Source: Candidatus Micrarchaeota archaeon (GTDB lineage: Archaea; Micrarchaeota; Micrarchaeia; Norongarragalinales; UBA8480). Taken from it: DNA of 64,000 nt. The stretch is taken from positions 3,407-67,406 of the forward strand of contig JAHFHC010000003.1 in NCBI GenBank assembly GCA_023247085.1, given 5' to 3'. Positions 2,601 to 59,926 of the stretch are shown piece by piece; position 1 is the first letter of the stretch, and each line of letters begins with the position of its first letter. The notes under the pieces are model-generated. The model searched no databases. It saw only the letters and a list, made by a program, of their open reading frames with translations, and was not told where the DNA came from. The translations under genes were made by a program, and so were the position numbers.

Positions 2601-3134
2601 ATGGGCAAAGGGGCTTATTTGAAGGGCGCACGGTTTGAACGCCAACTAAAAGAAATGCTCCGCAGTCGTGGCTTTTGGGTTATACGTTCCAGCAAAAGCG
2701 GAGTAGATGGTTTAGCCCCGGATTTAATTGCACTTAGCATGAATCGAAAATTTGCGTTAGAATGCAAAGCTTGGAAGGCAAATTTACATTTTGAAAAACC
2801 CAAGATGCAAATTATGAAGGAGTTTGAAAACACAACCGGAATCCCTTTTTACATTGCATGGAAACAACCAAGAGAAGACTGGCGGTTTTATCCATTATCT
2901 GCACTTAAAGAAACTACTCGCGGCTATACGCTTGTGCTTTCTGACTTAAAAATGGGAATGAGATTAGCCGATCTTACTGGAGAAGAGTCGAAAACCCTAC
3001 AAAACACGCTAACAGATTTAACTAATAGTGAGTTACAATCAATAACGTTAGAAGAAGCCGAAAAACCAGAGAAAACGTCGCCAGACGTAAATTCAGAAAC
3101 AACCCCCGCTAATTCTACGACAAACGACAGATAA
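2601..3134 (+). CDS. hjc: Holliday junction resolvase Hjc-like nuclease with acidic/Ser-Thr-rich C-terminal extension
   Basis: GARFERQLKEMLRSRGFWVIRSSKSGVDGLAPDLIALSMNRKFALECKAW matches the Hjc/restriction-endonuclease-fold core (E...GxD...ECK). The ~45 aa C-terminal tail is atypical. Confidence 0.5.
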   Translation: MGKGAYLKGARFERQLKEMLRSRGFWVIRSSKSGVDGLAPDLIALSMNRKFALECKAWKANLHFEKPKMQIMKEFENTTGIPFYIAWKQPREDWRFYPLSALKETTRGYTLVLSDLKMGMRLADLTGEESKTLQNTLTDLTNSELQSITLEEAEKPEKTSPDVNSETTPANSTTNDR

Positions 3135-3188
3135 ATACGACTAGTTTGTTACTACCGGTAAGTTTATAAATTACTTATTGCATAAGTA

Positions 3189-3578
3189 TTGCAGATCAAA
3201 ATGACAAGTTTATCACCATCTCAAATGGCAAAAATGAAAATTGGACTAGTGGAAAAGAAAGCCGCACCTAAACCGGAAGAGGACGTAGTTGTCATGCCTG
3301 CTTTCGTGCCAACTAAGATGAACAAAGGAGAAGGAATTCTCGAAGTTACAACTCGTCAAAAATACTTAAATGAAGGATACGCAGACTGGATTAACTGGCA
3401 CCTATACCGCATAATTGGAATAGGCTCAGCAGTTGCTGCTTTGTTTTTAATTGGAATAAACTTGTGGCTAGCTGCTGGCGCAGGAGCTATAGCCGGACAT
3501 TTTTATTCAGAACACGTTAGAATCGCAAAGAAAATCGCAGTAAACTACTCAAGGAGAAGGCTCCTATACACAAGGTAA
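3189..3578 (+). CDS. Small membrane protein (soluble N-domain plus one C-terminal TM helix), member 1 of tandem array
   Basis: ORF with one hydrophobic helix (IIGIGSAVAALFLIGINLWLAAGAGAIAG). It is co-directional and tightly spaced with the next five ORFs. Confidence 0.3.
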   Translation: MQIKMTSLSPSQMAKMKIGLVEKKAAPKPEEDVVVMPAFVPTKMNKGEGILEVTTRQKYLNEGYADWINWHLYRIIGIGSAVAALFLIGINLWLAAGAGAIAGHFYSEHVRIAKKIAVNYSRRRLLYTR

Positions 3579-3588
3579 ATGAAACACT

Positions 3589-3975
3589 ATGGCATTAAGC
3601 GGAATCAAAGGAACAGTCGTTGACGTTGTAAAGGATATTCGACAGAATACTCCTCTTAAAGTGGAAAAAAAAGAGGAAACGGTCAAGACAAGTGAATTTT
3701 ACACTGGCGCTTTGAGTAGAGGTAGTGATAACGTATTAGGACAATGCACTAGAAAAGAATTCATAAACGAGTTCATTGATTTTTGGAAGGACGATTACCG
3801 TGCAAAAGCGAAATGCATTTGTTTTCTAGCAATAGCTGCATTGACATTCAATATAATGGCACCATTTTCACTTTTTTGCATTGCACTTGCAGCAAAGTAC
3901 TGGGATTGGGCAATGTGGTGCAGAAACATAGCTAGATTCAATGGAAACTTCCGTACAATCATATACGGACAATAA
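3589..3975 (+). CDS. Small membrane protein, array member 2
   Basis: C-terminal hydrophobic segment CICFLAIAALTFNIMAPFSLFCIALAA. It starts 11 nt after the previous ORF. Confidence 0.3.
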   Translation: MALSGIKGTVVDVVKDIRQNTPLKVEKKEETVKTSEFYTGALSRGSDNVLGQCTRKEFINEFIDFWKDDYRAKAKCICFLAIAALTFNIMAPFSLFCIALAAKYWDWAMWCRNIARFNGNFRTIIYGQ

Positions 3976-5532: not shown

Positions 5533-7125
5533 GTGAAGCGCAACTTTATTTTCGTTACTGGCGGCGTACTATCCTCCCTAGGTAAAGGCATACTTGCATC
5601 ATCTATTGGAAAAATCCTAAAGGACAAAGATGAACACAACGTTTCACTAATGAAAATAGACCCTTACCTCAATTGCGATGCAGGCACATTGAACCCATTT
5701 GAACATGGGGAAGTCTTTGTAACACGCGATGGACAAGAATGCGATTTAGACCTAGGCAATTACGAACGCTTTTTGAACACTTTTGCAATTAACGAACAAA
5801 ACTTAATGATGGGAGACGTTTACCGCGAACTTGTTGAAAAAGAACGACGCGGAGACTATCTTGGCAAAACCGTACAATTGATTCCACACGCTACAAATGA
5901 AATCAAAAAACGAATACGCGCATGCGGTGAAAAAACCAAGTGCGATACGCTGATAATAGAAATAGGCGGCACAGTAGGGGATATCGAAAGTGAAGTGGTA
6001 TTAGAAGCGAGTAGACAAATGAAATACGAAGAAGGCAACAACGTGCTATTCATTCACTTAGCGCTACTGCCCACTATTCTAACTGGCGAAGAAAAAACTA
6101 AGCCAATGCAACACTCAGTAAAGGCATTACAAGCAAGAGGCATTACCCCCGACCTATTAATAGGAAGAACAAGCGACAGCATGGCTGCAGAGTCAAGGTC
6201 AAAACTAGCATTGCAATGCAACGTAAACGCAAGCGATATTTACTATTCACCAAACGCACCAACCATTTACAAATTGCCACTCTTATTGGAAAAACAAGGA
6301 ATCGATAAAGCAATTGGCAATAAACTGGGATTTGAAATTCTAAATGGCGAAACATTTGAACAATGGAAAAAACTAGTTGACCAACTAGAATCAGCCTCTG
6401 ACGAAGTAAATATAGCTGTAATCGGCAAATATGCAACTAGTAAAGATGCTTACATGAGTTTATTCGAAGCGCTTACACACGCGGGAGTTGCAAATAAAGT
6501 TAAAATTAAAGCGGATTTAATTGACGCAACAAAAATAGAAAAGGAAAGCGTTAAACTCAATGATTATCACGGCGTAGTGATTCCAGGCGGATACGGCAGC
6601 CGCGCAGTTGAAGGCAAAATAAAAGCAATTCAACACAGCCGCGAAAATAACGTTCCTTTGCTCGGAATTTGTTACGGCTTTCAACTATCTATAGTTGAAA
6701 TTGCACGAAACATACTTGGCTGGACGGATGCCAATACAACTGAAATCATCCCAGATACAAAACACCCCGTTATTGACTTGTTACCTGAACAAAAACAAGT
6801 CAAGGATAAAGGCGCAACCAACAGGCTCGGCGCAAAGAAAACACTAATCGAAAAAGAAACAATGGCATTTGCAATGTACAAACAAGAAAACATACTAAAG
6901 CGATTCCGTCACAGGTGGGAAATGAACCCAGAATATGTTCAAGTGATGCAAGATGCAGGAGTGGTTTTTTCTGGAGTTGATGAAAGTAAAACTATTAAAA
7001 AAGTGCTTGAATTGAAAAATCACCCGTTCTTCTTTGGAGTACAATATCACCCAGAATTCGACTCTCGATTAGAAAAACCAGAAGAATCTTTTACAAAGCT
7101 AATTGAGGCGAGCAAAAAATGCTAA
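5533..7125 (+). CDS. pyrG: CTP synthase
   Basis: The N-terminus KRNFIFVTGGVLSSLGKGILASSIGKIL and the glutamine amidotransferase domain with LLGICYGFQL...H are present. Length is 530 aa. GTG start. Confidence 0.9.
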   Translation: MKRNFIFVTGGVLSSLGKGILASSIGKILKDKDEHNVSLMKIDPYLNCDAGTLNPFEHGEVFVTRDGQECDLDLGNYERFLNTFAINEQNLMMGDVYRELVEKERRGDYLGKTVQLIPHATNEIKKRIRACGEKTKCDTLIIEIGGTVGDIESEVVLEASRQMKYEEGNNVLFIHLALLPTILTGEEKTKPMQHSVKALQARGITPDLLIGRTSDSMAAESRSKLALQCNVNASDIYYSPNAPTIYKLPLLLEKQGIDKAIGNKLGFEILNGETFEQWKKLVDQLESASDEVNIAVIGKYATSKDAYMSLFEALTHAGVANKVKIKADLIDATKIEKESVKLNDYHGVVIPGGYGSRAVEGKIKAIQHSRENNVPLLGICYGFQLSIVEIARNILGWTDANTTEIIPDTKHPVIDLLPEQKQVKDKGATNRLGAKKTLIEKETMAFAMYKQENILKRFRHRWEMNPEYVQVMQDAGVVFSGVDESKTIKKVLELKNHPFFFGVQYHPEFDSRLEKPEESFTKLIEASKKC

Positions 7126-7559
7126 CTATTTACACGGACAAACACTGCGAAAAAGTTGCGCAAGCAATTGCAAGTGGCGCAAGTAACGTGGAACACAAAA
7201 TTACAAAAATTCCGGAATTCACTGAACAAAATGTATTGTGCATTGCAAAGAAGCCATTTGGAAATGAACTAAAACAAATAGCAGACAAACTGATTGGCGC
7301 AGTGTACGTGGTGGGGGTCGGATTCTCTTTCGACAAAATGAGAAAGATGATTGAAGAATTACAAAAAGACCAGCCAAGCATAAAGGTTGAAGTGACTCTC
7401 TGCCTTAAGCGTAAAGGCACACTACCATTAGGGGGAGAAGTTACAGAAATCGAACTTGCGCGCGTATCTGCCCTTGGCGAACGAATTGCTACAACAATAA
7501 CTGGAACACGCCAACGCCCACAAAACGAAAAAAACAGAATACAAAACTACAACAAATAG
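7119..7559 (+). CDS. Hypothetical protein overlapping pyrG stop
   Basis: 146-aa ORF that overlaps the pyrG 3' end by 7 nt (ATGCTAA). I recognise no motif. Confidence 0.3.
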   Translation: MLTIYTDKHCEKVAQAIASGASNVEHKITKIPEFTEQNVLCIAKKPFGNELKQIADKLIGAVYVVGVGFSFDKMRKMIEELQKDQPSIKVEVTLCLKRKGTLPLGGEVTEIELARVSALGERIATTITGTRQRPQNEKNRIQNYNK

Positions 7560-7918
7560 CAAAAAGTTGAGAAGATAGAGCGAGGTAAGGGAGTTGCACC
7601 CTTCTATTCCGCTTGCTGCACGCGGAGCGCCTATTCCGCTAAATTTTTCTTTTTAGAAAAAAACTACTGCAGGCGGATGCATAGCTGATCTGCCAACCTC
7701 GCAAATTTCAAAGGCAAAAAAGCATTAGGACTAGTCGGTAATTAATACCTTTTTTTGTTTTCTAAAAGAACACAGAGGCCAAGTCTCTCCAAGCAATTTT
7801 AATTAGAAACTTGGAAGCCAACATTGGCGCACCTGCGTTCAACCCACCTTTTTACAGAATCCGATGCTAAAAGTAAAGAAAAAAGTGCCAATATAAGCGT
7901 TCCGGATAAGAATAAAAG

Positions 7919-8143
7919 CGGGCTCGGTGGGATTTTCAAGCAAAAACCGTTCTTTTTACAAAAAACAAAAGAAAAAAAGACGCTGCGTGTTCTTTTTTAG
8001 AAATAAAATGTTTGTTGTCAAAGAAAGGTGTTGTCTTTGAACCCACGACCCTTCGGTTAAGAGCCGAATGCTCTAGCCATTCCAGGAATTTTGCCGCTAC
8101 TATTATTATAGTTATGGCATAATTCAACCTGAGCTACGAGCCC
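7919..8143 (-). tRNA. tRNA-Lys(CUU) with two introns, a 48-nt intron in the D-loop and a ~103-nt intron in the T-loop
   Basis: On the minus strand, exon1 (8143..8128) is GGGCTCG TA GCTC AGG. Exon2 (8079..8036) is TGGCTA GAGC A TTCGG CTCTTAA CCGAA GGGTC GTGGG TTCAAA. Exon3 (7932..7919) is T CCCAC CGAGCCC G. Joined, they give a 74-nt cloverleaf: 7-bp acceptor GGGCTCG/CGAGCCC, U8 A9, D-stem GCTC/GAGC, anticodon stem TTCGG/CCGAA, loop CUCUUAA (U33, anticodon CUU, A37), 5-nt variable loop, T-stem GTGGG/CCCAC. Exon-intron junctions are uncertain by a few nt. Confidence 0.6.
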
Positions 8144-8303
8144 ACAAAAAACAAAAAAAATGTATTTGCTAGTTTAGAGGAGCGAATAGTTATTTAAAAT
8201 ATCTCTGCGTATATAAAGTTAGTAAAACAGCACAATGCTTTAGGCATCGTAGCTAAATTACAACATTTCGAACGTTGTATTCAACCTTTTGAATGGTTTG
8301 AAA

Positions 8304-8900
8304 ATGGTAAAAAAAATTCCTGCAAAGGCTGAAGTGAACAACACCAGTAAAATGGTGAGTCCTACAAAGCAATTAGCTGGGGAATTAACTCTTTTTATAA
8401 AGGAACTTGCTGGCGAAGAAGGCGTTCAAATAATCTCGTGTATTGGCGACAGTGGAACAACTGACGATAAGATTGAAGAAGTTACAAAAATGAAAATCGC
8501 AGAGATACGCTCTGTGTTAAACCACTTGCATAGCTATGGACTAGTAGAATACACTAGGGAGAAAAATTTGCAGACGGGGTGGTTCACTTACACTTGGCGG
8601 CTAAATGCAAACCGTGCATTGCAAAACTTCTTAGTTTTAAAGAGACGCGAATACGAAAAATTACGCACAAAGCTGAGCAGTGGGGATGGCGTTCAGTTAT
8701 ACCGTTGTCAAAAAAGCTGTAATTGTTTAGAGTTTGAAAAAGCAATTGAACTCGGTTTCCGCTGTCCGGGTTGCCGCGGTAAATTAAATGTAGTGGATCA
8801 AGAAGAAGAATTATTAAAACTTGAACGAAAGATAACTTCATTAACAAGTGTAACTCAACTGTCAACCTCGGATTTTTCAAGCCGCGTATTACAAAGTTAA
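8304..8900 (+). CDS. tfe: Transcription factor E (TFE-alpha / TFIIE-alpha homologue)
   Basis: N-terminal winged helix (IAEIRSVLNHLHSYGLVEYTREKNLQTGWFTYTWRLN), then a zinc ribbon CQKSCNCLEFEKAIELGFRCPGCRGKL. The track ORF begins at the TTG at 8289; the ATG at 8304 (MVKKIP) is the likelier start. Confidence 0.55.
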   Translation: MVKKIPAKAEVNNTSKMVSPTKQLAGELTLFIKELAGEEGVQIISCIGDSGTTDDKIEEVTKMKIAEIRSVLNHLHSYGLVEYTREKNLQTGWFTYTWRLNANRALQNFLVLKRREYEKLRTKLSSGDGVQLYRCQKSCNCLEFEKAIELGFRCPGCRGKLNVVDQEEELLKLERKITSLTSVTQLSTSDFSSRVLQS

Positions 8901-8988
8901 AACAATTTAAGACGGGTTTTGTAAAGTTAAATAAACGCATAGCCTTTTTAAGTTTAAAAAAGACAAATTCTTTTACGCTCCTGACTCT

Positions 8989-9214
8989 AGCGGGGTAACA
9001 AACTCGTTTCTCTTTAATTAGATATTAGTTTGACCCAAGGGTAGCCAGGAGTGCCCGCTGGTCCGACCAACGGCTAATTCATACAAATAGCAGCTGGTTA
9101 GGGCGAAGCTCATAACCCGGAGACCGGTGGTTCAAAAACCGCTTTTCTTTTAGGAAAAGAAAAGTGTGTGGGAAAAGAAAAACTTCTTCTTTTTCGAAAA
9201 TCCACCCCCCGCTA
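8989..9214 (+). tRNA. Candidate interrupted tRNA (anticodon loop CUCAUAA = CAU, Met/iMet-like) with probable introns; fold not fully resolved
   Basis: AGCGGGG UA at 8989-8997 is perfectly complementary to CCCCGCU at 9207-9213. The latter directly follows a T-stem 3' strand TCCACC (9201-9206), which pairs with GGTGG (9126-9130) 5' of TTCAAAA. A canonical D-loop AGCTGGTTAG (9092-9101) and an anticodon loop CTCATAA (9109-9115) are in the right order. The anticodon-stem 5' strand does not pair as written. A T-loop intron of ~63 nt is implied, as in the tRNA-Lys at 7919-8143. Confidence 0.25.
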
Positions 9215-9261
9215 TTTTTCATAACCACTAATTTTTATTCTCCGAAAAATTAAGAAGTTCG

Positions 9262-10455
9262 ATGAAAACACTATTAGTTACATTGGACGGCGTTGCTGAC
9301 CGGCCTTGCGTGCAGTTAGGAAACAAAACTCCGCTTGAAGCTGCAAAAAAACCAAATTTAAATAGATTGGCACAAAATTCTGTTTTGTTTAATACCTGCA
9401 TTGCGGGCGAAATTGCTCCAGAGTCTGACGTGGGGGTACTTTCTCTGCTGGGGATTAACCCTTTTCAAAAGCATGTTGGACGTGCAATTTTTGAATGGCT
9501 TTCAACTGGAAGGCGTTTTGAAAACGGCTGGCTTGCACTTCGAGCTAATTTCGCAACAGTTGATAAACGTGGAAAAATCCTGGACCGCCGCGCTGGCAGG
9601 AGTTTATCGCGTTTTGAAGCAAAACAATTGGAACAAGAGATCAATGCAATAAAATTAGGCACTCCTTTTGAATTCGTTGCAACTTCTGGCCACCGGGGGG
9701 TGGTTGTGTTCAAAGGAGATTTTTCCAAGCACATTCAAAATACTGACCCGGCATACCAAAAAAACAAAAAGGGAATAAGCAACGCTAAGCACAAGTTCGC
9801 CTCAAGAGTTGCCCGGTGCACCCCCTTGTCCTCTGATTCGAAAAGTAAAAAAACCGCTGCACTTGTAAATGCCTTCACTCAGGTAGTCAATGCTGTGCTT
9901 GAAAAAAGTGAAGTGAACCAGCACAGGAAGAAGCGCGGCCAATTAGCGGCAACGGCGTTATTGCTAAGAGATGGCGAAACAAAATCGCCTAGAGAAAATT
10001 ATTCAGAGTGGACAATAGTTGCAGGCATGCCATTAGAGATTGGAATTGGAAAAGCATTTCAAATGAACATGGTGAAAATAGCAGAGGGAGATTACAAAAA
10101 AATTGCGGCAATTGTTGGCAGCGAAATTAAAAAACGGAATGTCTACGTTCACTTAAAGGGCCCGGATGAGTATGGGCACGACGGGGATGTTTTTGGAAAA
10201 AAAAGAAGCATTGAAGCAATCGACCACCTTTTTTTTGGCAATTTAAACGTGGATTTAAGCAAAACTAGAATTGTTGTAACTGGCGATCATGCTACGCCGT
10301 GTGAATTAAAAGCACATTCAAATGACGCCGTGCCTGCACTTATTGCAGGAGGAAAACTAAAAGGGCAAAAAAACGGTTTTGATGAACCAAGCGCAAATAA
10401 GCAAAAAACCATTGTAGCATGGAAATTGCTTAGAACCGCGGCTTTGCTAACTTAA
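9262..10455 (+). CDS. apgM: 2,3-bisphosphoglycerate-independent phosphoglycerate mutase, archaeal type
   Basis: LLVTLDGVADRP...GNKTPLEAAKKPNLNRLA...ESDVGVLSLLGINP and KGPDEYGHDGD motifs. Length is 397 aa. Confidence 0.8.
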   Translation: MKTLLVTLDGVADRPCVQLGNKTPLEAAKKPNLNRLAQNSVLFNTCIAGEIAPESDVGVLSLLGINPFQKHVGRAIFEWLSTGRRFENGWLALRANFATVDKRGKILDRRAGRSLSRFEAKQLEQEINAIKLGTPFEFVATSGHRGVVVFKGDFSKHIQNTDPAYQKNKKGISNAKHKFASRVARCTPLSSDSKSKKTAALVNAFTQVVNAVLEKSEVNQHRKKRGQLAATALLLRDGETKSPRENYSEWTIVAGMPLEIGIGKAFQMNMVKIAEGDYKKIAAIVGSEIKKRNVYVHLKGPDEYGHDGDVFGKKRSIEAIDHLFFGNLNVDLSKTRIVVTGDHATPCELKAHSNDAVPALIAGGKLKGQKNGFDEPSANKQKTIVAWKLLRTAALLT

Positions 10456-11734
10456 GCCCGTATAATTCCTCAATCATTAGCAAACGGTTATATTTTGCGG
10501 TTCGTTCGCCTCTTGCTGGTGCGCCGATTTTCGCAAATTGACAGTCGAGTCCAACTGCAAAATCTGCTAAAAAAGAATCTTCGCTGTCGCCGGATCGATG
10601 AGAGGCAACTAGATTCCAATTTGCAGCTTGCGCTATTTGGGCGGCTTCAATTGTCTCAGTAACTGTACCAATTTGATTTGGCTTTAGTATTACTGCATTG
10701 CATGCTTCGGAGATTACGCCCCGCATTATTCGACCGGAATTAGTAACCAGTAAATCATCACCCACTACTTGCGTGTGTTGTTTTTTGGCTACTGAAGTGA
10801 ATTCTGTAAAACTGTGCCAGTCGTTTTGATCAAACGGATCTTCAATTGAAAATATGTCGAAATCGTGCATTAGCGAAAGATAAACGTCGGTTAATTTACT
10901 TGAAGAAAGCGGTTTACCTTCAAAGTTGTACTTGCTGGTTTTTGAATTATAAAATTCGCTTGCGGCACAGTCAAGTGCCAACTTAACTTTTTTTGAATGT
11001 CCTGCTCGGTCAATTACGGATTGAATTAATTCGAGCGCTTGAATAGAAGATTTTACGTGCGGCGTAAAACCCCCTTCGTAACCAACGCTTGTTCCCCCTG
11101 CTCCGAATTTTTTTATAATTAATTCACGGAGTGCAAAATCAATTTCAGTTACTAGCTCAACGCATTCAAAAAACGATTTGGCACCAATTGGAACAACCAT
11201 AAACTCCTGTATTGCGGTGTTTGCTGCGCCGTGTTTGCCACCGTTTATTAAATTAGACATTGGAATCGGCAAGCGCATTGCGTTTGGCGCTGAATGCGCT
11301 AGTTGTGAAATATATTGAAATAATTCTAGGTTTTTTTGTGCTGCTGCCGCCTTTGCTGCAACTAAACTAATGGCAAGCAGCGTATTTGCGCCGAGTTTGG
11401 ATTTGTTTGGGGTTGAATCAATAGCAAGTAAAAAGGAATCTAGCTTTTCTTGGTTTAAGTAAAAAGTTGATAAATTTAGTTTTTCAGCGATTCTGCTGAT
11501 GTTGTGGCATGCTTTTGAAACCCCTTTGCCATTAAATGCTTTTCCCCCGTCTCTCAGTTCAACTGCTTCAAAAACTCCGCTGCTTGTGCCGGCAGGGACG
11601 GTTGCGGTAAACGTGTTGGTTTTTGTCTTCAAAACCGCCGTGATTGTGGGTATTCCGCGCGAGTCTAGTGTTTGAAATGCGAATAACTTCTGTTTTAAAG
11701 AGGGACTCCCCTTAGTTCCAGTAATCATAATCAA
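10430..11734 (-). CDS. eno: Enolase
   Basis: SHRSGDSEDSFLADFAVGL, ILKPNQIGTVTE and other enolase signatures. Length is 434 aa. The 3' end overlaps the apgM 3' end (convergent genes). Confidence 0.9.
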   Translation of the reverse strand: MIMITGTKGSPSLKQKLFAFQTLDSRGIPTITAVLKTKTNTFTATVPAGTSSGVFEAVELRDGGKAFNGKGVSKACHNISRIAEKLNLSTFYLNQEKLDSFLLAIDSTPNKSKLGANTLLAISLVAAKAAAAQKNLELFQYISQLAHSAPNAMRLPIPMSNLINGGKHGAANTAIQEFMVVPIGAKSFFECVELVTEIDFALRELIIKKFGAGGTSVGYEGGFTPHVKSSIQALELIQSVIDRAGHSKKVKLALDCAASEFYNSKTSKYNFEGKPLSSSKLTDVYLSLMHDFDIFSIEDPFDQNDWHSFTEFTSVAKKQHTQVVGDDLLVTNSGRIMRGVISEACNAVILKPNQIGTVTETIEAAQIAQAANWNLVASHRSGDSEDSFLADFAVGLDCQFAKIGAPARGERTAKYNRLLMIEELYGLKLAKPRF

Positions 11735-13870: not shown

Positions 13871-14203
13871 ATGGATTCCTATCAGTGTAAGAACTGCAAG
13901 CTAGAATTTGAAGCAAACGAAGCCGCCCAGTGCCCGCGTTGTTCAAGTGCACAAATTCACCGAAAACCAAAAGACGCGCCTCTTTCTAGTGCGGCGAGTT
14001 CAACTGTTGCCCCCGCCGCTCAACCGCGCAAATTTGTTTACGGGCCAGTTATAACTGACACTAAAGAAAGTTGGAAGAATTATCACAATGCTGACGTACA
14101 GGTTTGTTCTGCTTGTGGTGGAAAAGACTTTGAATTCATTTGGAAGAGAAAAGAAAAAGTATGCAAAAAGTGTGGCGAAATAATGCCACTACGCAGACGC
14201 TAA
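13871..14203 (+). CDS. Double zinc-ribbon protein
   Basis: Two CxxC...CxxC units are present: CKNCK...CPRCSS and CSACGG...CKKCGE. Confidence 0.45.
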   Translation: MDSYQCKNCKLEFEANEAAQCPRCSSAQIHRKPKDAPLSSAASSTVAPAAQPRKFVYGPVITDTKESWKNYHNADVQVCSACGGKDFEFIWKRKEKVCKKCGEIMPLRRR

Positions 14204-14340: not shown

Positions 14341-14823
14341 TCAAGGTACCACTCTCGGTTTTCCTTGAATTTTCTTTTGTGGGATGAAGTTGGCAAAGTA
14401 TTTTGCTGCTTCGCTGTTTAGCGGCGAATACGGATTTGGGTTTTCTAGCATTTGCAGTAGCGCTTCGGCAATGCTTGACAGCGTTTGTGATTCAGTCCAG
14501 GAATTTAGCACTTGAATGCAAACTCGACCGTCTTTTGGCCGGATATTTGGGTGAAATATGTCACTGTCCCAAATTACTTCAATTCCGCCGGCGTACGGGT
14601 ATTCGCGGGTTAAGTAAATTGAAATGTTGTGGCTGTTGATTGGCACAACTGCGTCGCCGTTTTTAGTGTAGCCGCGCCCATTTAGCTTAAAGTGGTACTC
14701 GGTTTTATCCAGGTTAACTTCTAAGTCGGAAATGTGGTTGTTCTTTGAAAGCGAGGCAAATTCGTTGTCTAGCCTGCGCTTCCAAACCCCTTCAGGTAGC
14801 TTTGGCATAAGTGTTGGCTTCAA
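14341..14823 (-). CDS. Ubiquitin-conjugating enzyme E2 (UBC fold)
   Basis: The UBC core motif FHPNIRPKDGRVCIQVLNSWTESQTL (HPN...C...W) contains the catalytic Cys. Length is 160 aa. The start overlaps the stop of the upstream Ub-like gene by 4 nt. Confidence 0.7.
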   Translation of the reverse strand: MKPTLMPKLPEGVWKRRLDNEFASLSKNNHISDLEVNLDKTEYHFKLNGRGYTKNGDAVVPINSHNISIYLTREYPYAGGIEVIWDSDIFHPNIRPKDGRVCIQVLNSWTESQTLSSIAEALLQMLENPNPYSPLNSEAAKYFANFIPQKKIQGKPRVVP

Positions 14824-18167: not shown

Positions 18168-18923
18168 CTAATGCACGGGGCAACTGTTTCTCTTTTCAAT
18201 TGTGAATATGTTTGTTTGTCCAGTTAGCCCGTTGTAAAATGTGTATTTTCCAGCCAAAGTCGTTCCAGTTTTTAGTATTAGTTTAACGAATTCATTTACT
18301 TGCATGCCTGCAATGACGCTTGTTGTTGTTGGCAACGCTGGCATTTTTGGGTCTATAATATCGAGCATTTCTCCTACGCACGAGTATTTTTTCCATAGCA
18401 AACCATAGTCTTGTTTTGACAATCCACATTCGAGACAAGCGGCTGGTGCTTGCACTACTTGCAATTTACCGAGAAACCCGCTTGTGCCGCCGTCAATTAA
18501 GATGACTTTGCCATAACAATTTGCATTAACGTGCAGCCGCGCCCCTAAATTATCTAGACAGCCGAATACAGCATCAAAACCAGAGAAAAATTTATCGTCA
18601 AGTGCCTCAACGTTTTTTATAATTGGGGTTACAACCGCCGCTGGATTGAGTTTTTTAGCTGCGAGACTGAGCGCTTCGGCTTTTAGTGCCTTGTTTTCTG
18701 CATCGTTTTGTGTAAATAACAGGCAGCGGTTTAAATTTGCTTTGACAACTGTGTCGAAGTCAATAACAGTAAGCTGGCAAACGCCTAGTTGCAGCAAATT
18801 CTTAGTCACTTCATTGCCTAATGCGCCAGCGCCGACAATACAAACCTTGGCACTCGCGATTTTTTCTTGATTCCAACCCGCAACGCGCTTTTGCCGATCA
18901 AACTGGTCATCATCTACATTCAT
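18168..18923 (-). CDS. E1-like ubiquitin-activating enzyme (ThiF/MoeB/UBA family)
   Basis: KVCIVGAGALGNEVTKNLLQLGVCQLTVIDFDTVVKANLNRCLLF is the Rossmann ATP-binding E1 signature. A CxxC pair (CLECG) follows. Length is 251 aa. Confidence 0.7.
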   Translation of the reverse strand: MNVDDDQFDRQKRVAGWNQEKIASAKVCIVGAGALGNEVTKNLLQLGVCQLTVIDFDTVVKANLNRCLLFTQNDAENKALKAEALSLAAKKLNPAAVVTPIIKNVEALDDKFFSGFDAVFGCLDNLGARLHVNANCYGKVILIDGGTSGFLGKLQVVQAPAACLECGLSKQDYGLLWKKYSCVGEMLDIIDPKMPALPTTTSVIAGMQVNEFVKLILKTGTTLAGKYTFYNGLTGQTNIFTIEKRNSCPVH

Positions 18924-32334: not shown

Positions 32335-32450
32335 GATAGCGGCCATAGGAGAGTGGAAATACCCAGTCCCATTTCGAACCTGGAAGTCAAGCACTCTAAC
32401 GGCACTCCCAGTACTGTTGTGATCAACGGGAACAGAAGCTGCTGCTATCA
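32335..32450 (+). rRNA. rrf: 5S ribosomal RNA
   Basis: GATAGCGGCCATAGGAGAGTGGAAATACCCAGTCCCATTTCGAACCTGGAAGTCAAGCACTCTAACGGCACTCCCAGTACTG...GCTGCTATC. Helix I closes by 5'/3' complementarity (GATAGCGGC with GCUGCUAUC), and conserved loop C/E motifs are present (CCCAUUUCGAAC, AGUACUG). Confidence 0.7.
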
Positions 32451-32475: not shown

Positions 32476-33312
32476 CTACTTTACCGCGAAATCAATAACA
32501 ACTTGTACGCTGAACGGAGAATAGGGGCGTACAACGCGTTTGAAAATTATCTTACATTTTCTCTTCTTTTTTCTACACTCGGTTTTAATTTTTTTCTCCA
32601 ATACCCTAAATGGGTTGGTTTTCTTTTTAGTTTTTTCATTGCGGTGTGACCCAAATCCATAAAGGTGAACTATTCCACCAACCGCCGTCGCGTCGATTAT
32701 TTGTGGTAAAAATTTGTATGCAGTATGAGGCAGCGGCGTAATAACTCTATCCGCCCACTTCTTTTTTTGTTTTAGCAATTTCTTTGCGTCGCCTTTATTT
32801 ACAACAACAATTTCGCTTACTTTATTTAATGCAATATTCTGTTGCATATATTTTACCGCAACTGGGTTCAACTCATTTGCAATAATGTCTGCAGTTTTTT
32901 GCTGAGTTTTTAGTTTTTTGGCAATTATAATTGGAAACGGCCCAACTCCCGCAAACAACGCAAGCACTTTTTCTCCAGTTTCCACTTGTGCAGCTATTCG
33001 GCTGCGTTCAAATGCAAGGCGTGGAGAAAAGTACACTCTTGCTACATCAAGTTCAAAAAAACAATCGCTTTCTCTGTAAGTTGTTTTAGTACTTTTCTTT
33101 CCAGCTAAATGACGCAACTTCCACACACGATATTCTCCATGCATTGCGCCCCTTTTTTCGTAAACGGACTGCAAGTGTTTATTAGCTGCTAAGATTTCTT
33201 GAGCGAGTTGCTTGGCGTTTTTTTTCTGTTCAACGGGAATTTCAGTAATTGCAATTGTGCCAATAGTGTCTAGCGGCAATGTAGTTGCGGGGTTTGCTTT
33301 CAGATCTTTCAT
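32476..33312 (-). CDS. Class I SAM-dependent tRNA methyltransferase of the Trm5/Taw2 (Met-10+) family
   Basis: VLALFAGVGPFPIIIAKK is the SAM-binding motif I. The N-terminal domain is typical of Trm5/Taw2. Confidence 0.55.
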   Translation of the reverse strand: MKDLKANPATTLPLDTIGTIAITEIPVEQKKNAKQLAQEILAANKHLQSVYEKRGAMHGEYRVWKLRHLAGKKSTKTTYRESDCFFELDVARVYFSPRLAFERSRIAAQVETGEKVLALFAGVGPFPIIIAKKLKTQQKTADIIANELNPVAVKYMQQNIALNKVSEIVVVNKGDAKKLLKQKKKWADRVITPLPHTAYKFLPQIIDATAVGGIVHLYGFGSHRNEKTKKKTNPFRVLEKKIKTECRKKKRKCKIIFKRVVRPYSPFSVQVVIDFAVK

Positions 33313-59446: not shown

Positions 59447-59926
59447 TTACCAGTTAAAACTTTTTTCAATTGCTTTTTCTAACAATATTTTCAACACCAT
59501 TGCTTCATCTTCGCTTATTGGAATAGCTATTGACACAACTTGCCCTTTTTGATCTTGCGTTGACAGCTTAAAATAATACCCTGTTGCCATTTTTGAAAAG
59601 CTTACGGTTGAGTTCCGCGTATCTGCAGAAATAGCGTATCCCCCTTTTGACGGGTCGTGAAACAGTTCTGCGTTGGCAGCTTTGCCGCTTAATACAATTA
59701 GCAGTTTAGCCATGTCAACTATTGCCATTTTGAAAGTTAGTTTATCCGACCACCCGAATGCTTGTGGTCCAGTTTGCTTTGCTGCTTCAACAAAAACACT
59801 TTTCTTTTCTGCATTAAAGTCAAATTGAACTGCTGAACCTGTGCCGGTTTTGTTCGGCTTGTAAACTTTAAATTTGTTTTCGAATTTATTTTCAAATTTA
59901 CTTTCGCTTTTAGCTACATTGTCCAT
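59447..59926 (-). CDS. Hypothetical protein with possible Whirly/PC4-like ssDNA-binding fold
   Basis: KVYKPNKTGTGSAVQFDFNAEKKSVFVEAAKQTGPQAFGWSDKLTFKMAIVDMAKLL is reminiscent of the Whirly KGKAAL...F...W..K..F.L motif pattern. Confidence 0.25.
   Translation of the reverse strand: MDNVAKSESKFENKFENKFKVYKPNKTGTGSAVQFDFNAEKKSVFVEAAKQTGPQAFGWSDKLTFKMAIVDMAKLLIVLSGKAANAELFHDPSKGGYAISADTRNSTVSFSKMATGYYFKLSTQDQKGQVVSIAIPISEDEAMVLKILLEKAIEKSFNW

Follow-up and report, generated by a model that had tools for sequence, protein, structure and literature searches.

Positions 8989 to 9214 on the plus strand of the window, a 64-kb stretch of DNA from a Candidatus Micrarchaeota archaeon, very probably constitute a functional gene for an initiator tRNA-Met(CAU) (tRNA-iMet) that is divided into four exons by three introns. 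The three-intron gene is evident from its exon/intron structure and junctions, from its conservation and covariation among relatives, and from sequence features of the initiator type. It belongs to an established type, the multi-intron archaeal tRNA with relaxed bulge-helix-bulge (BHB) motifs, and does not represent a new category of mechanism. The host was assigned to the Micrarchaeota, a DPANN lineage, by its ApgM homologs.

Exon structure and the spliced product

The tRNA locus (8989-9214) is located in the 361-nt gap between the TFE (TFIIE-alpha) gene (8289-8900) and apgM (9262-10455), and all its parts are read from the plus strand. Exon 1, AGCGGGGTA (8989-8997), provides the 5' strand of the acceptor stem (positions 1-7), U8, and A9, and is invariant in all Micrarchaeota orthologs. 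It is followed by the 41-nt intron 1 (8998-9038), inserted between tRNA positions 9 and 10. Exon 2, GGGTAGCCAGGAGTGCCCGCTGG (9039-9061), carries the D-arm (positions 10-25), G26, and the anticodon-stem positions 27-30, and is separated by the 46-nt intron 2 (9062-9107; between positions 30 and 31) from exon 3, GCTCATAACCCGGAGACCGGTGGTTCAAA (9108-9136), which comprises G31, the anticodon loop CUCAUAA, positions 39-43, the variable loop, the 5' strand of the T-stem, and T-loop positions 54-59. The 64-nt intron 3 (9137-9200) interrupts the T-loop between positions 59 and 60, and its junction can be shifted by up to 3 nt with the product unchanged. Exon 4, TCCACCCCCCGCTA (9201-9214), supplies U60, the 3' strands of the T-stem and the acceptor stem, and the discriminator A73; the CCA end is not encoded.

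When joined, the four exons form the 75-mer AGCGGGGTAGGGTAGCCAGGAGTGCCCGCTGGGCTCATAACCCGGAGACCGGTGGTTCAAATCCACCCCCCGCTA, which ARAGORN calls as tRNA-Met(cat) and whose unconstrained minimum-free-energy fold is the cloverleaf (-34.5 kcal/mol). A 7-bp acceptor stem, 4-bp D, 5-bp anticodon, and 5-bp T stems, 7-nt anticodon and T loops, U8, and U33 are found together in the spliced sequence only. ARAGORN predicted zero tRNA across the raw 64-kb window, and Rfam searches of the raw region 7000-11000, at the gathering threshold and at E ≤ 10, gave no tRNA match and nothing tRNA-like at 8989-9214. At the gathering threshold, a 5S rRNA was the sole Rfam match in the window. The negative results on the raw sequence are uninformative, because the models cannot bridge three introns.

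A first-pass annotation of this DNA had proposed an interrupted tRNA with a CAU anticodon, in agreement with the call on the spliced 75-mer. The strings on which it was built are present as cited (AGCGGGG at 8989-8995, CCCCGCT at 9207-9213 after TCCACC, GGTGG-TTCAAA at 9126-9136, CTCATAA at 9109-9115, and AGCTGGTTAG at 9092-9101), and the acceptor and T-stem pairings drawn there recur in the spliced cloverleaf. The T-loop intron of about 63 nt that it predicted does exist, with an actual length of 64 nt, and its site matches that in the neighbouring tRNA-Lys gene, both lying at 59/60; it is, however, one of three introns and not the sole one. The D-loop was misplaced: the string taken for it, AGCTGGTTAG, makes up the 3' strand of the intron 2 inner helix and is absent from orthologs without intron 2. 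The genuine D-arm, GGGTAGCCAGGAGTGCCC, occupies 9039-9056, with G and CTGG next to it on the 3' side and intron 1 between it and AGCGGGGTA. The anticodon stem had looked unclosed because the D-arm had been assigned to intron 2 sequence. The string CGAAG was rightly said to be unable to pair with CCCGG, and is located within intron 2; the 3' strand CCCGG needs YYGGG, which is provided by CTGG (9058-9061) together with G9108.

Conservation among relatives and alternative readings

A comparative test of the three-intron model was needed, because ARAGORN is permissive and a blind scan for BHB motifs is noisy. When brute-force splicing combined with ARAGORN was applied to the neighbouring tRNA-Lys gene, very many junctions were accepted, and this approach can neither place junctions nor prove the model. 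The comparison with orthologous loci, which the first-pass annotation had advised, showed that the order TFE - gap - ApgM - enolase is kept in six relatives (ApgM 92, 75, 66, 60, and 57% identical) and that the same tRNA gene is conserved in each gap. In the orthologs L002/L003, L004, and L008, each of the three sites interrupted in the window carries an intron. L005 and L007 contain intron 1 only, and their sequence GCCCGCTGGGCTCATAACCCGGAGA.C.ATGGTTCAAATCCAT.CCCCGCTA is unbroken, running through the intron 2 site as GCCCGCTGGGCTCATAA and through the intron 3 site as GGTTCAAATCCAT. Since this contiguous sequence matches the predicted joins exactly, the junctions of introns 2 and 3 are settled.

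A scan with exon 2, using one genome per species, gave at least 120 loci, and the ortholog counts below come from the matches listed. Micrarchaeota genes of the AGCGGGGTA type carry no intron, any single one, pairs, or all three, so that across the Micrarchaeota the three introns are present or absent in nearly every possible combination. Intron 1 is present at 9/10 in at least 20 distinct orthologs (24-64 nt), intron 2 at 30/31 in at least 12 distinct orthologs, and an intron at 59/60 in at least 10 other orthologs (17-93 nt). Contiguous intron-less alleles were found for each site, in L005 and L007 for introns 2 and 3, and in L012, L025, L028, L033, and others for intron 1. The uninterrupted genes of L033, L037, and L124 are 73/75 identical to the spliced product of the window, far above what chance would give, and are all called tRNA-Met(cat) by ARAGORN; the Rfam model RF00005 scores 56.9 bits on the uninterrupted L033 and L037 genes. 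The iMet genes of L015, L029, L031, L038, and L042 are interrupted elsewhere in their 3' part and not at 59/60, by an intron of 43-71 nt that follows the anticodon stem or lies within the variable/T-stem region; this would be a fourth insertion site in this gene.

The alignment of 29 distinct spliced or uninterrupted sequences contains 609 cells for the 21 cloverleaf pairs, and all 609 are standard pairs, as opposed to 44-57% for slid partners. Double (compensatory) changes occur at four T-stem pairs, and none of 500 shuffles reached the observed covariation score. Most other alignment columns are fixed by the search patterns, and the independent covariation signal is that of the T-stem. Between the window and L002, 75/75 exon positions are identical, compared with 69% of the four-fold degenerate sites of apgM. 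The exon differences from L004 are compensated changes at two T-stem pairs only, with synonymous sites 48% identical. Apart from the covarying T-stem, the exons are invariant among relatives whose ApgM proteins are only 57-75% identical. Judged by these comparisons, the tRNA-iMet locus is under strong purifying selection.

To explain the unclosed anticodon stem, the first-pass annotation had offered either further introns or a decaying pseudogene. The further introns are there, and the pseudogene, i.e., a decaying tRNA-Met copy with its anticodon stem wrecked by insertions, is highly improbable. It would agree with the blank ARAGORN and Rfam results on the raw window, with the stem as drawn in that annotation, and with the fast divergence of intron 3 (69% identity to L002), but it was rejected because of the complete pairing and the compensatory T-stem changes. 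The exon constraint relative to L002 and L004 is far above that of the apgM synonymous sites, no pair is broken, and the T-stem alters by compensatory pairs only. In addition, the insertions lie exactly at BHB-competent sites with covarying helices, precise intron-less alleles are known, and the syntenic position is retained in every relative examined. A gene with one T-loop intron only, with AGCUGGUUAG at 9092-9101 as its D-loop and an aberrant or bulged anticodon arm, can practically be dismissed. Although AGCTGGTTAG looks like the D-loop of an elongator tRNA and stands in the correct order relative to the other loops, there is no D-stem beside it, and some 95 nt between the acceptor strand and this supposed D-loop would be unaccounted for. 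Moreover, L005 and L007 lack AGCTGGTTAG entirely and yet have a perfect, contiguous tRNA, while L004 reads AACAGGTTAG at this place and L008 is unrelated, both still pairing there with the 5' portion of intron 2. A split or permuted tRNA was ruled out by the arrangement of the four exons, which follow one another in order on a single strand, within 226 nt.

The identity of the tRNA was read from the spliced sequence. The pair A1:U72, the pairs G29-31:C39-41, and the CAU anticodon are all invariant across the 29-sequence alignment, and A1:U72 together with three G:C pairs at 29-31:39-41 is the hallmark of archaeal and eukaryal initiators. We consider it very unlikely that the product of a genuine three-intron gene would be an elongator tRNA-Met or a tRNA-Ile2 (CAU, with C34 modified later) and not the initiator. 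The CAU anticodon is common to all three kinds of tRNA and the initiator role is assigned by sequence features; on the other hand, A1:U72 and the G29G30G31:C39C40C41 stack are present, while archaeal elongator Met and Ile2 tRNAs normally begin with G1:C72. The AGCGGGG...GGGCUCAUAACCC type was found in nearly every recognisable Micrarchaeota hit and in the large majority of Bathyarchaeota among the matches listed, a smaller Bathyarchaeota set carrying a GGCGGGG 5' end. The Ile2 assignment is further disfavoured by a report (PMC3239211) that ARMAN lineages are without tRNA-Ile(CAU). Within the 64-kb window, the initiator tRNA gene at 8989-9214 is the sole candidate of its kind.

Splice motifs, the 5' leader and proposed maturation

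A BHB motif has a 4-bp helix H, opposed bulges of about 3 nt, and one flanking helix maintained. This was found exactly in intron 2, and with one mismatch in the window in introns 1 and 3. In intron 2, helix H is CGCU:GGCG (C25-U28 with GGCG), 4 bp long and invariant in the 12 orthologs listed. The bulges are GG|U and AA|G in the window, and among the same orthologs both 3-nt bulges, GG|N and AA|G, are invariant. The inner helix h' of the window is CCGACCA:UGGUUAG, the 3' strand of which contains AGCTGGTTAG; across the 12 orthologs it is formed by 6-7 bp of unrelated sequences, such as CTTTCGCG/CGCGAGGG, TTGAACT/AGTTCAA, and TGCCTT/AAGGCA. Being without an outer helix, the motif is of the HBh' type.

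In intron 1, helix H of the window pairs G4-G7 with ACCC (3 bp and a G.A mismatch), the bulges are UA|A and AA|G, and h' is CAAACU:AGUUUG. In the orthologs, G4-G7 is faced by (A/C)C(C/T)C and H is complete (4/4) in 14 of 20 among the matches listed, the G.A mismatch occurring in the clade of the window. The h' helix covaries in at least 20 orthologs (CAAACT/AGTTTG, CTTTTCA/TGAAAAG, TTTTTCG/CGAAAAA, and others). For intron 3, the T-stem serves as helix h, and H is UUCA:(U/C)GAA, represented in the window by UUC:GAA and an A.C mismatch; with its 3' bulge AA|U, the motif is of a relaxed hBH type. H is complete (4/4) in L002, L027, L048, and L092. The intron also contains an internal 10-bp hairpin, CUUUUCUUUU/AAAAGAAAAG. 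The iMet intron 3 and the T-loop intron of tRNA-Lys have CAAC..CCTTTCTTT-like starts and GAAAA|T ends in common; these sequences are of low complexity and constrained by the BHB, and paralogy is not claimed. No C/D-box guide RNA motifs (RUGAUGA / CUGA) were seen by eye in the introns of the window; only intron 3 of L002 ends in CUGA.

A blind BHB scan was rejected as a means of placing the introns, as chance motifs abound in this A/T-rich region. False BHB motifs score equally, so that the motif has no force as proof by itself, and the argument is carried by the comparative data. The minimum-free-energy fold of the precursor contains the acceptor stem and lacks the intron 2 BHB, which is weak evidence either way; energy models disfavour 3-nt bulges.

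The outer helix of intron 1 cannot come from the tRNA body, because only three exon nucleotides precede H. The 5' leader CGCTCCTGACTCT (8976-8988, plus strand) contains CTCCTG (8978-8983), which is complementary to CAGGAG of the D-loop (9046-9051), and this pairing is proposed as the outer helix h of intron 1. All six syntenic orthologs retain the CTCCTG motif. In the centroid fold of the pre-tRNA, unlike the minimum-free-energy fold, CGCUCCUG is base-paired to CAGGAGUG, and the intron 1 hairpin lies between the two strands. We compared the last 18 leader nucleotides with the D-region, counting the genes as independent of phylogeny. Among the matches listed, the longest Watson-Crick run averaged 5.7 nt in 19 distinct genes with intron 1 (at least 5 nt in 13/19) and 3.5 nt in 24 genes without it (at least 5 nt in 4/24; Mann-Whitney p = 3e-5), and shuffled leaders gave about 3.3 nt. 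Three distinct leaders (ACTCCTG, TCCTGGCT, and GGCT abutting A1) pair with shifted segments of the same D-loop. This is moderate evidence for the hypothesis that the leader would provide the outer helix of intron 1 by pairing with the D-loop, in which case intron 1 would have to be spliced before RNase P removes the leader. The string CGCTCCT occurs about 20-30 nt 3' of a TATA-like box (TTTTAAATAA / TTTTTAAG) in both the tRNA-Lys gene (8160-8185, minus strand) and the tRNA-iMet gene (8976-8983), and it could be a transcription-start or promoter-proximal element instead of, or besides, a partner of the D-loop.

Upstream of the leader, the TATA-like A/T-rich stretch TTTTTAAGTTTAAAAAA (8945-8961, plus strand) was read from the sequence as a putative archaeal promoter of the tRNA gene. 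The TATA-like boxes TTATAAAC, TATAAAAG, and TTAATAAT are found 30-33 nt 5' of the conserved CTCCTG in L005, L007, and L008. A TTTTT run right after the discriminator (9215-9219, plus strand) is a putative oligo-T terminator, and T-runs are also present 3' of the gene in L002, L005, L007, and L008.

Several points weigh against a functional three-intron initiator gene as described here. ARAGORN tolerates many alternative splicings, so its call on the hand-spliced sequence is weak evidence alone. The H helices of introns 1 and 3 have the G.A and A.C mismatches in the window, and the inner helix of intron 3 is nearly absent, leaving its 5' cleavage site ill-defined. The blind BHB scan of 8985-9215 gave dozens of motifs with equal or higher scores, mostly in the poly-purine/poly-pyrimidine part of intron 3. 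Transcription and splicing are inferred from sequence comparison, and no Pfam match to EndA (tRNA_int_endo) or RtcB was found among the 60 open reading frames (ORFs) of the window; these genes would lie elsewhere in the genome. The association between the leader and intron 1 is uncorrected for phylogeny, and a complementary leader is likewise seen in 4 genes that lack intron 1. Finally, the scope is 64 kb of the genome, and a second, uninterrupted iMet gene may be present elsewhere.

For the three-intron gene, we infer transcription, the enzymes involved, the processing order, and the role of the leader by analogy with known systems. A single precursor of about 245 nt would be transcribed from the A/T-rich promoter to the oligo-T terminator. 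Three protein-spliced introns of the BHB type would then be removed, at 9/10 (41 nt), 30/31 (46 nt), and 59/60 (64 nt), each intron presumably folding with its flanking exon into a relaxed BHB, of the HBh' type for introns 1 and 2 and of the hBH type for intron 3. An EndA of broad specificity, a property of the alpha2beta2, epsilon2, and loop-bearing alpha4 forms, would cut in both bulges; the likely form here is epsilon2, as in ARMAN-2. An RNA ligase of the RtcB type would join the exons. RNase P cleavage and CCA addition would result in the 75-nt tRNA plus CCA.

Such a pathway has precedents. Multi-intron tRNAs are known, with three introns as the reported maximum per tRNA (PMC4033280). The multi-intron tRNAs of Thermoproteales, found with SPLITS and tRNAscan-SE 2.0 (Sugahara 2007/2008; reviews PMC4033280, PMC4090602), likewise have up to three short BHB introns per gene that are missed by default finders, and their introns are located at non-canonical positions, including the D-region, the anticodon stem, and 59/60, with relaxed HBh'/hBH motifs. 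In contrast to these hyperthermophilic crenarchaea, the present organism is a mesophilic-looking DPANN archaeon with 40% GC, in which another EndA architecture is expected, and here one orthologous gene shows nearly all intron combinations across one phylum. Closer to the window, ARMAN-2, Candidatus Micrarchaeum acidiphilum (Fujishima 2011, PMC3239211; Hirata 2012, PMC3488258; PMC12397907), is of the same phylum and has disrupted tRNAs and hBH introns at 59/60. According to PMC3239211, 56% of the tRNA genes of ARMAN-2 are disrupted, its epsilon2 EndA proved able to cut an hBH intron at 59/60 in vitro, and multi-intron tRNAs with two T-loop introns occur; a three-intron initiator tRNA and a leader:D-loop pairing, on the other hand, are not described in the main-text passages of that paper. 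The split tRNAs of Nanoarchaeum equitans and Caldivirga (Randau 2005; Fujishima 2009; review PMC4033280) are similar in that sequence outside the mature tRNA pairs to present a relaxed BHB to EndA. Unlike in those, the iMet exons are collinear in 226 nt on one strand and presumably belong to one transcript, and nothing points to separate promoters or trans-splicing.

Intron evolution and neighbouring genes

Introns 1 and 2 of the window and L002 are identical at 86/87 positions (99%), as are 79/80 positions of the 40-nt flanks on each side, while apgM is 88% identical overall and 69% identical at four-fold degenerate sites. Intron 3 is about 60-69% identical between the two, with indels, and its 10-bp hairpin is kept via compensatory change. 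Compared with L004, introns 1 and 2 are identical at 79/87 positions (91%), as against 48% at four-fold sites and 39-64% in the flanking intergenic DNA. On this sequence comparison, introns 1 and 2 have changed less than synonymous sites and appear constrained beyond the BHB helices, which suggests that the excised introns or the intron-containing precursor may have a function of their own.

The distribution of the introns is mosaic. In L004, the T-stem (GGAAG/CTTCC) and intron 3 are L008-like (the L008 ApgM being 60% identical), with introns 1 and 2 resembling those of the window. L005 and L007 are intermediate by ApgM, yet are without introns 2 and 3. As judged from the sequences, this pattern would need either several precise losses or an exchange of gene segments, and the L004 mosaic could be a trace of recombination or of tRNA gene segments exchanged horizontally. 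A more comprehensive picture, in which the Micrarchaeota iMet gene displays, as a natural series, how introns were gained, lost, and exchanged at three or four fixed sites, and in which intron 1 is leader-dependent and introns 1 and 2 are functional, is tentative and, taken as a whole, somewhat doubtful.

In L004, a 341-aa ORF (2847-3872, minus strand) with a faint LAGLIDADG_3 match is situated between the tRNA-iMet 3' end and apgM and widens the gap to 1340 nt; the called 3' end of the ORF overlaps the T-arm region of the tRNA. It may represent a homing-endonuclease-like insertion adjoining the tRNA gene.

Two more disrupted tRNA genes, both on the minus strand and both overlooked by ARAGORN, are located in the same 1.7-kb region. 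The tRNA-Cys(GCA) gene (7702-7579) consists of exon 1 (7702-7667) and exon 2 (7613-7579), separated by a 53-nt intron at the canonical site 37/38 with H CUGC:GCAG and the bulges AG|U and CA|A. Its D stem has 3 bp, its T-loop is the unusual UGCAACU, and its discriminator is U73. ARAGORN calls the spliced form tRNA-Cys, and Rfam gave only a weak 'Tymo_tRNA-like' match at this locus. The tRNA-Lys(CUU) gene (8143-7919) is interrupted twice, in the D-loop by an intron of about 48 nt and at 59/60 by one of 103 nt (8035-7933); by comparison with L025, its mature D-loop is probably AGGUUGGCUA, the junction being ambiguous by a few nt. The Micrarchaeote L028 has uninterrupted iMet, Lys(CTT), and Cys(GCA) genes within 3 kb, and the Cys and Lys identifications are supported by this clustering of uninterrupted counterparts.

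Elsewhere in the window, the ORFs at 14341-14823 (minus strand), 18168-18923 (minus strand), and 13871-14203 (plus strand) include a UQ_con/E2 domain (E = 6e-18) near a ThiF/E1-like match (E = 3e-47) and a zinc-ribbon. By these domain matches, they may form a eukaryote-like ubiquitylation cassette in a DPANN archaeon. The ORF at 59447-59926 (minus strand) has a Pfam match to Whirly (E = 1e-11), a plant-type single-stranded-DNA-binding transcription factor, which is unusual in an archaeon. The 5S rRNA gene (32335-32450, plus strand; 78.8 bits) adjoins a tRNA methyltransferase gene of the TRM5/TYW2 type (32476-33312, minus strand), and no 16S or 23S rRNA was found in the 64-kb window.

The analysis recovered an essential gene that ARAGORN and Rfam miss entirely, as the neighbouring tRNA-Cys and tRNA-Lys genes are missed, and DPANN annotations that report "missing" tRNAs likely share the same problem. 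If true, the leader-assisted motif would tie 5' end processing to the splicing order in archaeal tRNA maturation, and such a dependence would explain why lineage-specific leaders all pair with the D-loop. The series of iMet introns is a snapshot of intron gain and loss of the kind that reviews of the field have requested (PMC4033280).

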